A stretch of DNA of 64,000 nucleotides from Escherichia phage 92CQ: sequence record PV682554.1, one strand, 5' to 3'. The notes under the pieces are model-generated. The model worked only from the letters and a program-made list of their open reading frames with translations. It did no database searches and was not told the origin of the DNA. The translations under genes were made by a program, and so were the position numbers. The number at the start of each line of letters is the position of its first letter. Position 1 is the stretch's first letter. Below, in pieces: positions 40,079 through 47,325 of the stretch.

Positions 40079-40134
40079 TTGACAACGTTTTTTAATCTGA
40101 TAAGATGTATCACATAGGGCGGCAATAGTGCCGC
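40079..40134 (+). promoter_or_regulatory. PeSL-like cassette: TTGACA, 16 nt, TAAGAT, then leader hairpin GCGGCA-ATAG-TGCCGC
   Basis: Consensus -35; ATAGGGCGG block 7-8 nt after -10; precedes ATG 40159. Confidence 0.6.
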
Positions 40135-40158
40135 TCATAATAGAAGAGAGAAATAATC

Positions 40159-40431
40159 ATGGCATCATATAGCGCATCAATGATTGTAACGGGTATCACT
40201 GGTAAACCTATGCGCGGTGGCGGATCTTTCGCTAACATCAATATTGATGGGCGTTTATCCCTGGACGCAGCGATCACAGTGGCACGGGAAACGTTTAAAA
40301 AAGAATGTAATTTCAATAAACAAGATTATCTCGGCTTCGTTATTGAAAAAACCGCGCGCTTTGTTGATTATAAAAGCCCGAAAATGATCGACACTACACT
40401 AAAAGCGCAAGATGTAGCATTTTTGCTTTAA
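40159..40431 (+). CDS. hypothetical early protein
   Basis: 90 aa ORF downstream of PeSL cassette. Confidence 0.6.
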   Translation: MASYSASMIVTGITGKPMRGGGSFANINIDGRLSLDAAITVARETFKKECNFNKQDYLGFVIEKTARFVDYKSPKMIDTTLKAQDVAFLL

Positions 40432-40434
40432 GGC

Positions 40435-40494
40435 TTGACACTGAAAAATAATTTAGTAATATATACCACATAGGGCGGGAAATGGTTTCCCGCC
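40435..40494 (+). promoter_or_regulatory. PeSL-like cassette: TTGACA, 16-17 nt, TAATAT, hairpin GGCGGGAAA-TGG-TTTCCCGCC
   Basis: 9-bp stem hairpin followed by leader atcaaagaaaggg and ATG 40517. Confidence 0.65.
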
Positions 40495-40516
40495 AAATCA
40501 AAGAAAGGGTAACACA

Positions 40517-40879
40517 ATGAGCAAGCAAATCAATACTATCATGTTAAACCTGGTATCTTTCCGCGATGACGTGAAAAATCTTTCGCGTGATGCAGTGGAT
40601 GCACGGATCGAAAGCTATCGCACACAGATCGCGACATTACCGTTAAAACGTGATCAACATGCCGCTAATATGATGCTTGATGCTATGATTAAAAAGATGA
40701 TTCAATGTGATCTTACCCTGGCTTATGAATATGCTGGCGATCTTTTTGTAACGTATAATAAACCCGTTCCAGGTATGAGCACCACGGAAGAATTGCATGC
40801 CTTAAATCTGCGACAAGATGCATGGGATAACATGCGCCGTGTTATGGTATGGGTAGAAAGCGGTAAAATTTACGAATAA
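40517..40879 (+). CDS. hypothetical early protein
   Basis: 120 aa ORF downstream of PeSL cassette. Confidence 0.6.
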   Translation: MSKQINTIMLNLVSFRDDVKNLSRDAVDARIESYRTQIATLPLKRDQHAANMMLDAMIKKMIQCDLTLAYEYAGDLFVTYNKPVPGMSTTEELHALNLRQDAWDNMRRVMVWVESGKIYE

Positions 40880-40885
40880 AAACGG

Positions 40886-40939
40886 TTGACATTGCACGAA
40901 AACCTGATAAGCTATCTTAAAGCGGGAATTGTTCCCGCT
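40886..40939 (+). promoter_or_regulatory. PeSL-like cassette: TTGACA, weak -10, hairpin AGCGGGAA-TTG-TTCCCGCT
   Basis: Consensus -35 at 40886-40891; 8-bp stem hairpin. Confidence 0.5.
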
Positions 40940-40957
40940 TACATAGGATAAAACTTT

Positions 40958-41104
40958 ATGAAACAATATGTAATGAGTATCCACACCAAAAACGGCGCTA
41001 CTGTTACGACTCCGGCACGGTTTGCACTTGTAAACCGTTGCAAGAGACTAAAACGAGAGTTAAAAAATAACCGTGCAACGGGCTTTAAACGCTGGGGAGG
41101 ATAA
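40958..41104 (+). CDS. small basic protein (49 aa), not in ORF track
   Basis: MKQYVMSIHTKNGATVTTPARFALVNRCKRLKRELKNNRATGFKRWGG; its last codons form the RBS ggagga for the next gene. Confidence 0.4.
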   Translation: MKQYVMSIHTKNGATVTTPARFALVNRCKRLKRELKNNRATGFKRWGG

Positions 41105-41106
41105 TC

Positions 41107-41367
41107 TTGTTTTTTCTAAAAGTTTGTGATAATGTGATCGCTTTTGAACATGCTACAACGTTCGACCTGGCGAGATACGCTATCAGGTTTAAAGATAATG
41201 TTTATCCCCGTGCTGGCGGCGGTTACACTATTTTTAATCACCGTAACGCTCAATTAACGGATATAACTAATCCAGATCCTGGAGTGTATCGCATAGGCTG
41301 GCTACCGTCAAAAGACGCTGCAAGCATGTTTAAGGTGTGCAAACTACTAACAGAAGAGGCGAACTAA
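41107..41367 (+). CDS. hypothetical early protein (TTG start)
   Basis: 86 aa ORF; RBS ggagga 7-8 nt upstream of TTG. Confidence 0.45.
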   Translation: MFFLKVCDNVIAFEHATTFDLARYAIRFKDNVYPRAGGGYTIFNHRNAQLTDITNPDPGVYRIGWLPSKDAASMFKVCKLLTEEAN

Positions 41368-41368
41368 C

Positions 41369-41923
41369 ATGGGGCGTGAATATGTGATCCAGTCCTGGGT
41401 AAAGCATGATGCTAATGATCCGCGCATAATACCAGATGACATGATCGATCACATGGTAGGGTATAGCGGGGAGCAGATAGGAAATCGAGCGGCAAAGAGC
41501 AACGGCAACACCAGGACGCGATCCGTTCGCCCTGGATGGCTGGCGAATGGTAACGCTGACATTGCAAGCGCCGCAGATCCAAGCGATGACGCTAAAAATA
41601 ATCCCTTATACAGCATTGATCCGGCTTTTAAGGTGTTAGAAGAGTATCCCGCTAAATTAGCCGCACTAGATAAGGCATACGAAGAAAAGCGCATGGCATG
41701 GACTGTATACAACACCGCTAAAATGGTGCTAGATGCAAAATTGATTAAAGCCCAGGAGAAGATCAATAAACTTGTTACCATAGCGCAAGAGGAAGACCAG
41801 GACTACCAGGAGGAAGCGGAAGAAATCATGCCTACTCTGGAAGAGGAAGAGATCCAGCCATACATGCCGACGGAAGAGGAAAAAAGACAAGCCCTAAAAA
41901 ATTATGAAAATTGCATTGTGTAA
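41369..41923 (+). CDS. hypothetical early protein with strongly acidic C-terminus
   Basis: 184 aa; C-terminal run QEEDQDYQEEAEEIMPTLEEEEIQ. Confidence 0.55.
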   Translation: MGREYVIQSWVKHDANDPRIIPDDMIDHMVGYSGEQIGNRAAKSNGNTRTRSVRPGWLANGNADIASAADPSDDAKNNPLYSIDPAFKVLEEYPAKLAALDKAYEEKRMAWTVYNTAKMVLDAKLIKAQEKINKLVTIAQEEDQDYQEEAEEIMPTLEEEEIQPYMPTEEEKRQALKNYENCIV

Positions 41924-41925
41924 GG

Positions 41926-41981
41926 CTTGACATAGGCAAACAAGCCCCGTAATATGTACCACATAAAGCGGGGCAACGCCC
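41926..41981 (+). promoter_or_regulatory. PeSL-like cassette: TTGACA, 17 nt, TAATAT, hairpin GGGGC-AAC-GCCCC
   Basis: First of two tandem promoters upstream of ATG 42070. Confidence 0.5.
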
Positions 41982-45868: not shown

Positions 45869-45910
45869 TATCTTGAAAACGGCAAAGGCCGCAAACAAAA
45901 GGGTAAAATT

Positions 45911-46234
45911 ATGAAATCTGTGATCGGTGTTTATTTGGATAATTCTGATTTTTTCTATCATCGCGCTCGTTTCCTTGATGCTATTGATATGATAGAATCA
46001 GGCTTTAAAGAATACCGCCTTGCACATGATGACCTGGAAGCATTACAGGGCAATAGTGTTTTTACATTGCAAGCGAAAGCACTATGTAAAAGCCGGATCG
46101 ACATTGCGAGCAAAAAGATAGAACGCGGCATGTCCTGGTTGCGCACCGCAGAAATCAACATGGGGCAATGGTACGGCAAAAACTTAGAAAATAAACATAC
46201 CTTTGTCAATGTAGAAAATATTGAAGATTATTGA
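45911..46234 (+). CDS. hypothetical early protein
   Basis: Start set at MKSVIGVYL; track start was 45851. Confidence 0.55.
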   Translation: MKSVIGVYLDNSDFFYHRARFLDAIDMIESGFKEYRLAHDDLEALQGNSVFTLQAKALCKSRIDIASKKIERGMSWLRTAEINMGQWYGKNLENKHTFVNVENIEDY

Positions 46235-46296
46235 TTGACAGCACATCTAACGAGTAGTATATTGTATCTCATAGAGCGGGGAAATGGTTTCCCCGC
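46235..46296 (+). promoter_or_regulatory. PeSL-like cassette: TTGACA, 17 nt, TATATT, hairpin GCGGGGAAA-TGG-TTTCCCCGC
   Basis: 9-bp stem hairpin variant. Confidence 0.65.
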
Positions 46297-46316
46297 CTTA
46301 AAAGAAGAGATAAGCT

Positions 46317-46601
46317 ATGAAGATCACAAAAGCACTTTCCAACTATGCAGCACGTCGCGGCTTATGTTTAACCGTTGAAAACCTGGGGAAAGAAGATTTT
46401 TTGTGCTTTTGGGAGCTTGAGAATGATAATGAGTGGATCTTCTCTTATTCTATCTGCGAAGATCAAAACGGTTGTTTATTAACCTGGCGCGGTAATATCT
46501 ATTTACCGCAAGAAATCAAAGAGGAACTACCAGGCACGATCATGACTGAGAAACAGCTTAAGGAAGTGATCAATTTTGTAGGGCAAAACATTAAAAAATA
46601 A
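46317..46601 (+). CDS. hypothetical early protein
   Basis: 94 aa ORF. Confidence 0.6.
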   Translation: MKITKALSNYAARRGLCLTVENLGKEDFLCFWELENDNEWIFSYSICEDQNGCLLTWRGNIYLPQEIKEELPGTIMTEKQLKEVINFVGQNIKK

Positions 46602-46602
46602 T

Positions 46603-46662
46603 TTGACACTAGGCAAACAACGTAGTAAAGTTTATCACATAGGGCGGCAATAGGTTTGCCGC
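46603..46662 (+). promoter_or_regulatory. PeSL-like cassette: TTGACA, 17 nt, TAAAGT, hairpin GCGGCAA-loop-TTGCCGC
   Basis: Consensus -35 with 7-bp stem hairpin. Confidence 0.6.
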
Positions 46663-46685
46663 TCATAACAGAAGAGAAACAAATC

Positions 46686-46856
46686 ATGATCCCGACTATG
46701 TTTTACGTATCGCGCAAAGGTCACAATATTTTTTGGTCTGAAGATTTAAATGAAGCCATGACGTTTGCCCGTGATCGTGTTGCTATCGGTGGCGTTAATA
46801 TCACTGTAACCGATGAAAATGGCATTGAATACTATAACGGCGACGATGAAGAGTAA
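46686..46856 (+). CDS. small early protein (56 aa)
   Basis: Start set at ATG 46686 (MIPTMFYVSRKG...); track start 46656 is a TTG inside the hairpin. Confidence 0.5.
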   Translation: MIPTMFYVSRKGHNIFWSEDLNEAMTFARDRVAIGGVNITVTDENGIEYYNGDDEE

Positions 46857-46904
46857 TTAATGAGGCGGGGGGAGTATTCCCCGCCGTTAATAAAGAGATA
46901 AATC

Positions 46905-47174
46905 ATGAAAATAACATTAGATGACGCGATCAAGGCTATCGAATCCGGTTACACCCTGGTAAAAGATGATAAGGCTAAAACCGTGCACCACGTTAACAAG
47001 AAAACAGGCGAAAGCATGATCACATATAAAGCAGCCTACTTTCTCCAATCAGTAGCAGATCCGCGCGTACAACGCCAGGTTACAGCGGCTATTGCTAAAA
47101 AATTATGTGCTTTACAGGGCACAAGTTTTAACGAGATCGCCCCGTGTTTTGACTGGTCGAGCTTGAAAAAATAG
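46905..47174 (+). CDS. hypothetical early protein
   Basis: 89 aa ORF preceded by GC hairpin (about 46864-46885) and RBS aaagag. Confidence 0.55.
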   Translation: MKITLDDAIKAIESGYTLVKDDKAKTVHHVNKKTGESMITYKAAYFLQSVADPRVQRQVTAAIAKKLCALQGTSFNEIAPCFDWSSLKK

Positions 47175-47175
47175 T

Positions 47176-47230
47176 TTGACAAAATTATAAATCGGGTAGA
47201 ATGTATTTCGTAGGGCGGCAATAGTGCCGC
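47176..47230 (+). promoter_or_regulatory. orphan PeSL-like cassette (TTGACA...TAGAAT, hairpin GCGGCA-ATAG-TGCCGC) with no ORF before the next cassette
   Basis: Followed about 15 bp later by a second cassette; 17-bp direct repeat AAAAAATAGTTTGACAA occurs twice. Confidence 0.55.
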
Positions 47231-47245
47231 TCACGAAAAAATAGT

Positions 47246-47307
47246 TTGACAATATGCGGTTATCTGGTAAAGTGTACGACATAGGGCGGGGCAATAAGGC
47301 AACGCCC
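47246..47307 (+). promoter_or_regulatory. PeSL-like cassette: TTGACA, 16 nt, TAAAGT, degenerate hairpin
   Basis: Precedes micro-protein gene at 47326. Confidence 0.5.
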
Positions 47308-47325
47308 ACTAATGAGGGTAAAATC

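Follow-up and report, generated by a model that had tools for sequence, protein, structure and literature searches.

Repeated promoter–hairpin cassettes and the shuffling of small genes in a phi92-like Escherichia phage

Promoter-early stem-loop (PeSL) cassettes have been described in T4-like phages (Arbiol et al. 2010, PMC2839356; Comeau et al. 2014, PMC4122927), with the idea that genes are shuffled as modules, the repeated regulatory cassettes being the links. The stem-loop of a PeSL occupies one of five classes of position, one of them just downstream of the −10 element (Arbiol et al. 2010, PMC2839356). In the literature searched, PeSLs are reported for T4-likes only, apart from citations in papers on other phages, which are not phi92- or rV5-like, and the rV5 paper lists only promoters and terminators. 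We found no work linking PeSLs with phi92, rV5 or PVP-SE1, and a prior description in the phi92 or PVP-SE1 primary papers is possible. In the present work, we examine an array of promoter–hairpin cassettes at 40.0-49.0 kb of a 64,000-nt stretch of DNA from Escherichia phage 92CQ (PV682554.1), called the window in what follows. A sequence-only reading had taken one mosaic cassette and one tandem pair in this array for products of homologous recombination between PeSL-like units. We will argue that dispersed promoter–hairpin cassettes drive the gain, loss and swapping of small genes by recombination, and that the tandem pair arose by a separate deletion, a reading to which we give a probability of roughly 80%.

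The analysis compares the window with ten relatives (eleven genomes), and a survey of the hairpins took in 12 genomes. In this region, the identity to Justusliebigvirus genomes is 95-99%, with JohannJBalmer and EC_OE_11 at the top (98.9%). Judged by its sequence, the window belongs to Justusliebigvirus (phi92-like myoviruses of ca 146 kb, Stephanstirmvirinae), and a T4-like phage is excluded. The part at 40.0-49.0 kb is presumably the hyperplastic early-gene region of such a myovirus.

About 19 cassettes are found from 40070 to 48953, with one unit of about 85 nt before nearly each small open reading frame (ORF) of the + strand. A unit consists of an A-rich tract, TTGACA, 16-17 nt, TAnnnT (often with the TG of an extended −10), a box, a stem-loop, an A/G-rich leader with a Shine–Dalgarno (SD) sequence, and ATG. 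In 18 cassettes TTGACA and a TAnnnT −10 stand 16-17 nt apart, with 10-12 of 12 consensus positions matched and always on the + strand, which also carries 20 of the 23 strongest promoter-like sites. A conserved CAYRTAGGGCGG box lies at the predicted start site. The ORFs of the array encode 31-184 amino acids; in Pfam and PHROG scans they match only unknown-function PHROG families, and one DUF is the sole significant Pfam domain. All cassettes named below are on the + strand. The first of them, c40079 (40070-40158), has its −35 at 40079-40084, its −10 (TAAGAT) at 40101-40106, a CACATAGGGCGG box, a hairpin at 40117-40136, and a leader with SD before the ATG at 40159 of a 90-aa ORF (phrog_8099). 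In c40435 (40432-40516), the −35 at 40435 and the −10 TAATAT are followed by the hairpin GGCGGGAAATGGTTTCCCGCC at 40474-40494 and the leader AAATCAAAGAAAGG, with the ATG at 40517.

All hairpin cassettes of the window lie within 40079-48953. The stem is GC-rich and 8-9 bp long, begins 9-11 nt past the −10 element and thus occupies about +3 to +25 of the predicted transcript; the free energies are −13 to −18 kcal/mol (z about −3 to −4.7), and the hairpins end 19-23 nt 5′ of the ATG. Among the 12 genomes, about 25 distinct hairpin sequences occur at one offset, and the first variable stem position is G−C, C−G or T−A. Since every one of these variants keeps its pairing, it is the structure of the stem rather than its sequence that is conserved. 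An Rfam scan of 39.5-49.5 kb at E<=1 gave three sub-threshold chance matches, none of them on a cassette hairpin. A pattern scan of IMG/VR for the promoter together with CATAGGGCGG found several copies solely in phi92-like contigs of ca 100-150 kb, while the single copies elsewhere look like chance; because multiple copies are limited to such contigs, there is no evidence of wide spread for the exact CATAGGGCGG box.

The cassette hairpins were also considered as intrinsic terminators, but this was rejected on sequence: on the + strand they have no T-run after the stem, and a single one, at 43964-43992, registers as a terminator, on the − strand. Canonical terminators do occur in the region, at 44524-44548 and 48507-48535. 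The hairpin is located downstream of its own promoter and lacks a T-run, and can therefore not terminate efficiently without shutting off the gene behind it. The leaders of E. coli ompA (5′ untranslated region) and phage T7 gene 10 carry 5′-terminal stem-loops that stabilise transcripts. The cassettes resemble them in having a stable hairpin a few nucleotides from the predicted 5′ end, an unstructured A-rich leader with SD after it, and no U-tract, and differ in that the function of the cassette hairpin is deduced from its position. By its position and by this analogy, the hairpin is most likely a 5′-terminal mRNA stem-loop that acts as stabiliser or insulator rather than as terminator. Its uniform placement in the 5′ leader suggests a further role for the cassettes, that of giving host-takeover genes a standard mRNA stability or insulation.

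The comparison with PeSLs can be made on several levels. The near-consensus sigma70 promoter, the AT-rich upstream tract, the adjacent GC-rich stem-loop and the SD and ATG of a small ORFan are common to both, and so are the dense repeats in a hyperplastic region, the indels at cassettes between close relatives, the chimeric junction cassettes and the half or degraded cassettes. On the other hand, the phi92-like phages are a lineage unrelated to the T4-likes (they are Stephanstirmvirinae, and Vequintavirinae have related units), and their cassette sequences share no homology with RB49/phi1. The stem-loop, moreover, is here always in the transcribed leader (about +3 to +25), with the conserved box and no T-run. 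Its place in the leader and the missing T-run make it unlikely that the hairpin is the terminator or attenuator that defines a PeSL. The term PeSL-like is thus apt as an analogy of architecture, setting, indels and chimeras, and fails for lineage and for the hairpin. We take the phi92-like cassettes for a genuine shuffling system of PeSL-like type, in a phage lineage new to such systems.

Evidence for the region as a whole comes from chained alignments of 39.0-49.5 kb with the ten relatives. About 17 distinct indel or replacement events are found within 10 kb in the eleven genomes, and the breakpoints of 16 are in or at the edge of cassettes. The proposal that cassettes are sites of small-gene gain and loss and of the exchange of halves is well borne out by these events, and relatives of identical gene content without indels at cassette boundaries, which would have spoken against it, are not what is seen: the ten differ by about 17 indels. 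The breakpoints cluster at the three most conserved motifs of the unit, namely A-tract/−35, box/hairpin and SD–ATG. Overlaps of the high-scoring segment pairs at the junctions measure 70, 61, 31, 23, 17, 16, 15 and 7 nt, with about 0-3 nt in five events. Taken gene by gene, the identities to the ten relatives form a strong mosaic.

Several of the junctions are chimeric cassettes that crossed over in shared motifs. In PD06 and PD114, the promoter half of c40079 is joined to the leader of gp227 within the CACATAGGGCGG box, and gp226 is missing; this promoter half also precedes other genes in PD06, PD114 and tuntematon. In muut, c43366 is joined to c43665 at AGTAAA with gp234 missing, and the promoter P39818 is joined to c40886 at GGTTGAC with 1.07 kb missing. 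The window has such chimeras of its own. ESCO32 and muut carry an extra ORF between two cassettes, of which c42717 (42711-42798) of the window is the chimera, and phi92, Paula, muut, Nernie, PD06 and PD114 carry an extra gp247-like ORF, to which c48879 (48879-48953) is the matching chimera, with the crossover in the CGTAGGGC box. Smaller exchanges are seen at c46603 (46602-46685), where the hairpin alone differs among the relatives between identical flanks. Three other hairpin types occur there (A, B and a third), and the hairpin of the window, GGGCGGCAATAGGTTTGCCGCTC at 46642-46664, resembles a hybrid of two common types. The pattern suggests a short conversion patch. A rough clustering of 175 cassette instances gave 8 leader-half types joined to at least two promoter-half types, and one promoter half before three different genes.

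We now turn to the mosaic cassette c43048 (43039-43129, with the hairpin at 43087-43107 and the ATG at 43130), which the sequence-only reading had described as the promoter half of c40079 fused to the hairpin and leader of c40435. This description is confirmed, with one refinement. The 21-mer TTGACAACGTTTTTTAATCTG occurs exactly at 40079-40099 and 43048-43068, with no further copy at <=2 mismatches and 0 expected (100 shuffles), and the 40-mer CATAGGGCGGGAAATGGTTTCCCGCCAAATCAAAGAAAGG exactly at 40469-40508 and 43082-43121. Like the 17-mer discussed below, they have two copies each in 64 kb, with none expected in shuffles and no extra copy at 1-3 mismatches. The three-way alignment of c40079, c40435 and c43048 has 37 informative sites and a single switch, from 40079-like at the 5′ side to 40435-like at the 3′ side; the maximum chi-square for the breakpoint is 22.6, a value reached by 0 of 20,000 permutations (p<5e-5). 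Between the two parts, at 43069-43081, there is a −10 segment (GTATAGTTTATCG) that matches neither c40079 nor c40435, and because of this third type the cassette is a three-part one.

The history of this cassette can be followed in the ten relatives. All of them have the same hairpin and leader as the window before the gp233 homologue, while the promoter half takes at least four forms before this one hairpin, leader and gene. The PD114 form is 40079-like as far as CACATAGGGCGG, and the form of alia recurs in Phapecoctavirus tuntematon. Since the mosaic is common to JohannJBalmer, PD06 and muut, it is old rather than recent. The direction of transfer is less certain than the mosaic itself. The reading that c40435 was the donor of the hairpin and leader may have to be reversed, because these are invariant in c43048 and the leader of c40435 is polymorphic among the relatives (AAATC or AGGCCATC); the 40-nt identity may come from conversion of c40435 by c43048.

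The cassettes might also be diverged copies of an anciently tandem-duplicated gene with its promoter, their mosaic look being due to uneven divergence. The single architecture and orientation of all cassettes would be expected from such a history, but the ORFs downstream belong to unrelated PHROG families, the breakpoint of c43048 is sharp and statistically supported, and the same gene is found with different promoter halves in genomes otherwise >95% identical. We find this explanation hardly credible.

The tandem pair is a different case. As had been noted, two cassettes stand in tandem at 47165-47310 without an ORF between them: 47175-47325 holds two complete promoter and hairpin units (−35 at 47176 and 47246) and neither start codon nor ORF in between. 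The first, the orphan c47176 (47175-47235), has its −35 at 47176, the −10 TAGAAT at 47197-47202 and a hairpin at 47213-47232 (extended 47206-47238), and is without leader, SD and ORF; its promoter spacer is 15 nt, as against 16 in the relatives, a private loss of 1 nt. The second, c47246 (47236-47325), has its −35 at 47246, the −10 TAAAGT, a hairpin at 47284-47307 and the ATG of a 34-aa hydrophobic ORF at 47326. The 17-mer AAAAAATAGTTTGACAA, also reported to occur twice, is indeed present exactly at 47166-47182 and 47236-47252 on the + strand. Its first copy takes in the stop codon of ORF 46905-47174 and the −35 of c47176, its second is part of c47246, and in this genome the repeat, at 47165/47235, is 18 bp long with the G included.

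In seven of the ten relatives, a 64-codon ORF (phi92 gp243 family, phrog_20168) lies between the two cassettes, with the leader AACTAAAAGAGAAATCA before it and the end ...TAT/TGT-AAAAAATAG directly 5′ of the next −35. Whenever a record covers a junction query (226 or 80 nt), the match is split in two with an extra 204-205 bp in between; the full-length database relatives all retain the ORF, and the junction string is absent from the IMG/VR and GTDB genomes and from any other INPHARED record. On these grounds, the window carries by sequence comparison a private deletion of 205 bp, which took out the leader with its SD and left no more than the final 9 nt of the 64-codon ORF. The junction, GCCGCTCAC-G-AAAAAATAG at 47234/47236, has its left end at the 3′ foot of the hairpin; the homology is at most a few A's, and G47235 is unexplained. 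Because the hairpin is here joined to the remaining 9 nt of the ORF over a homology of at most a few bases, the tandem pair is, on this evidence, not a crossover of homologous cassette segments. The pair is thus a footprint of a lost gene, as proposed, but not of homologous exchange between cassettes.

The 17-mer repeat was considered as the cause of the tandem arrangement and rejected, since both copies are present in the relatives that retain the gene, where they flank the cassette and intact gene. The product of recombination at the 17-mer is seen in PD114, and it is a single chimeric cassette. The slot is variable in other ways: PD06 has a different ORF there, with a junction within the loop of the c47176 hairpin, phi92 has another arrangement, and PD114 and PD06 have other promoter halves before the hairpin, leader and gene of c47246. 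A recent illegitimate or micro-homology deletion of 205 bp, with one end exactly at the hairpin's 3′ foot, would have stranded the complete promoter and hairpin of c47176. The deletion also creates an extended palindrome of 14 bp at 47206-47238 (TTTCGT...ACGAAA, −19.6 kcal/mol), in which G47235 pairs with C47209. A template switch in a quasi-palindrome would fit the origin of G47235, a speculation built on one informative base.

One may ask whether the tandem pair is an artefact of assembly or laboratory passage in this one genome, as the junction occurs in no other INPHARED, IMG/VR or GTDB record and c47176 has in addition its private 1-nt spacer loss. We consider this very unlikely. The nearby repeats, at 17-18 bp, are too short for mis-assembly, the deletion takes exactly the leader and ORF with clean flanks, and even a deletion during passage would be a genuine event of this type in the biology of the phage.

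A broader question is whether illegitimate recombination plus selection would be sufficient for the whole region, with indels arising anywhere, the gene-respecting ones surviving, and the likeness of the cassettes reflecting shared functional constraint. A number of observations speak for this and weigh against the repeated-cassette explanation. At the junctions of the window deletion and of at least four further events, the homology amounts to 0-3 nt; the +301, +86, +150 and +342 insertions show, like the window deletion, little or none, and one junction is the 7-nt ATGGCTA. With several such events, homologous exchange is not the sole process. One indel, at 47431-47647, lies at operon-internal gene junctions without a cassette (ORF 47441-47656 is missing in phi92 and PD114), so that genes are lost or gained without cassettes as well. 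By itself, purifying selection would already leave the surviving indels concentrated between genes. Furthermore, the gp232 homologue ORF 42799-43038 (DUF7249) has two alleles that are ca 75% identical, with a divergent block at about 42864-43000, while the gene ends and both flanking cassettes are conserved. The possibility that the flanking cassettes bound this allele was rejected, as the block is internal to the ORF, and ordinary within-gene homologous recombination hence also shapes the region. Finally, we infer both the predicted +1 position and the function of the hairpin.

Against an account by illegitimate recombination only, the 15-nt promoter spacers and 14-nt leaders that are identical in non-orthologous cassettes cannot be convergent. 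The chimeric cassettes crossed over inside 15-70 nt of shared sequence, and hairpin-only patches were exchanged between identical flanks. In addition, 16 of 17 events are at cassette junctions, compared with about 17 of 27 gene junctions that have a cassette, which gives a one-sided binomial probability of about 0.004 (hand-calculated, for events that are not fully independent). The account by illegitimate recombination and selection only is in our judgement unlikely.

The exchange is not limited to the genus. The segment 42058-42344 (+ strand), made up of ORF 42070-42249 (59 aa, phrog_9374) and the cassette c42269, is an insertion/deletion unit that phi92, muut, PD06 and PD114 lack. The part 42058-42253 (locus L027, 2495-2690), which contains the ORF, has 93-96% nucleotide identity to many rV5-like Vequintavirus genomes. 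This homology reaches from ca 10 nt before the ATG, at the SD, to the stop codon only, and the ORF sits there between promoter–hairpin units of the rV5 type, pointing, as far as the sequences tell, to a recent horizontal transfer between subfamilies that was precise to the ORF. In Phapecoctavirus tuntematon, the cassettes have the same architecture and the same halves in other combinations, and the gene order differs, the gp227 homologue being displaced. In the addition of self-contained units of gene and promoter between resident genes, the array resembles the lambdoid morons (Hendrix/Juhala). Morons, however, are flanked by dissimilar sequences and their insertion is regarded as illegitimate, whereas here the repeated cassette flanks supply homology.

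Small promoter-independent ORFs that move as units bounded by an imperfect palindrome, conserved in structure over sequence, also call integrons to mind. A site- or structure-specific enzyme could recognise the GGCGG...CCGCC stem-loop in an attC-like manner and move the ORF units. Several junctions do lie at the box or hairpin (CACATAGGGCGG in PD06 and PD114, CGTAGGGC in c48879, the c47176 loop in PD06, and the window deletion at the 3′ foot of the hairpin), and the stem is conserved by pairing and not by sequence. Other junctions are at the −35/A-tract, the −10 and SD–ATG, so there is no single crossover site; with junctions at three or more different motif positions, the array does not behave as attC/attI exchange would. 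Nor is there an integrase or recombinase gene among the small ORFs scanned or in the neighbouring replication module; the proteins without a recombinase domain were those of nine small ORFs of the array, the missing ORF from JohannJBalmer and ten large ORFs of the neighbouring modules. In contrast to integrons, each unit has its own promoter, and the same junctions are explained by short-homology recombination. Recombination targeted to the hairpin in this way is very improbable. Slightly less so, but still improbable, is the more general idea that the CATAGGGCGG box and stem-loop are the target of a dedicated structure-specific activity, such as a phage nuclease or recombinase, or replication stalling at the hairpin, that drives ORF-precise exchange. 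If true, virulent phi92-like and rV5-like phages would have integron-like gene shuffling across subfamilies.

The repeated-cassette explanation can be put in terms of a mechanism as follows. Sharing short identical motifs (A-tract/−35, −10, box/hairpin and SD–ATG), the ca 19 units would act as dispersed direct repeats. Cassettes of one genome or of co-infecting relatives would then recombine over short homologies, or serve in template switching, through functions of the phage or the host. Three outcomes would be possible: a gene is deleted and one chimeric cassette is left, units of ORF and cassette are inserted, or promoter halves and hairpins are replaced as short conversion patches. The mosaic c43048 would be one such old patchwork. 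Background illegitimate deletions would occur too, the orphan of the window being one of them. We infer the recombination machinery involved and the early timing of the promoters.

A few further elements of the region should be mentioned. A second orphan cassette, c41927 (41924-42004), has a promoter, a hairpin at 41970-41982 and an SD-like AAGGTG but no ATG, and directly abuts c42005. It is kept in the relatives, and because of this conservation it is older than the orphan at 47176. A half cassette at 46857-46904, consisting of the hairpin GGCGGGGGGAGTATTCCCCGCC and an SD without a promoter, precedes ORF 46905-47174 and recalls the degraded "1/2 PeSLs" of Comeau 2014 (PMC4122927). The 458 nt of non-coding DNA at 48496-48953 include a promoter-like site, CTTGCC-17-TATTAT, and after it an element, likewise non-coding, that is conserved, GAACGGGCGGCACCTGGGGACAGGGGAGTAATCACCGG (48722-48810; locus L027, 4480-4560). 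The element is kept in 9 of 10 Justusliebigvirus loci (it was not found in phi92) and in rV5_ev158, has no Rfam match, and could represent a regulatory site or small RNA.

Upstream of the array is a replication module with methylase, PolA, primase-helicase and UvrD helicase. The ca 1.3 kb between a YbiA-like gene and the array (38627-39900) has no convincing + strand genes. It contains imperfect internal repeats at 38841-39045, annotated as repeat_region in muut and alia, and the promoter at 39818 that is a recombination partner in muut.

The results extend the PeSL idea, of repeated regulatory cassettes as linkers for modular gene shuffling, beyond the T4-likes to the phi92/rV5 group, whose phages have found wide use in therapy and biocontrol. 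They supply concrete, testable junctions, among them the 59-codon ORF with 93-96% identity between subfamilies. If the cassettes standardise mRNA stability or insulation, they would be ready-made portable expression cassettes for phage engineering. For the phages themselves, the shuffling of small genes at these cassettes explains why early regions differ gene by gene in genomes that are otherwise 95-99% identical.

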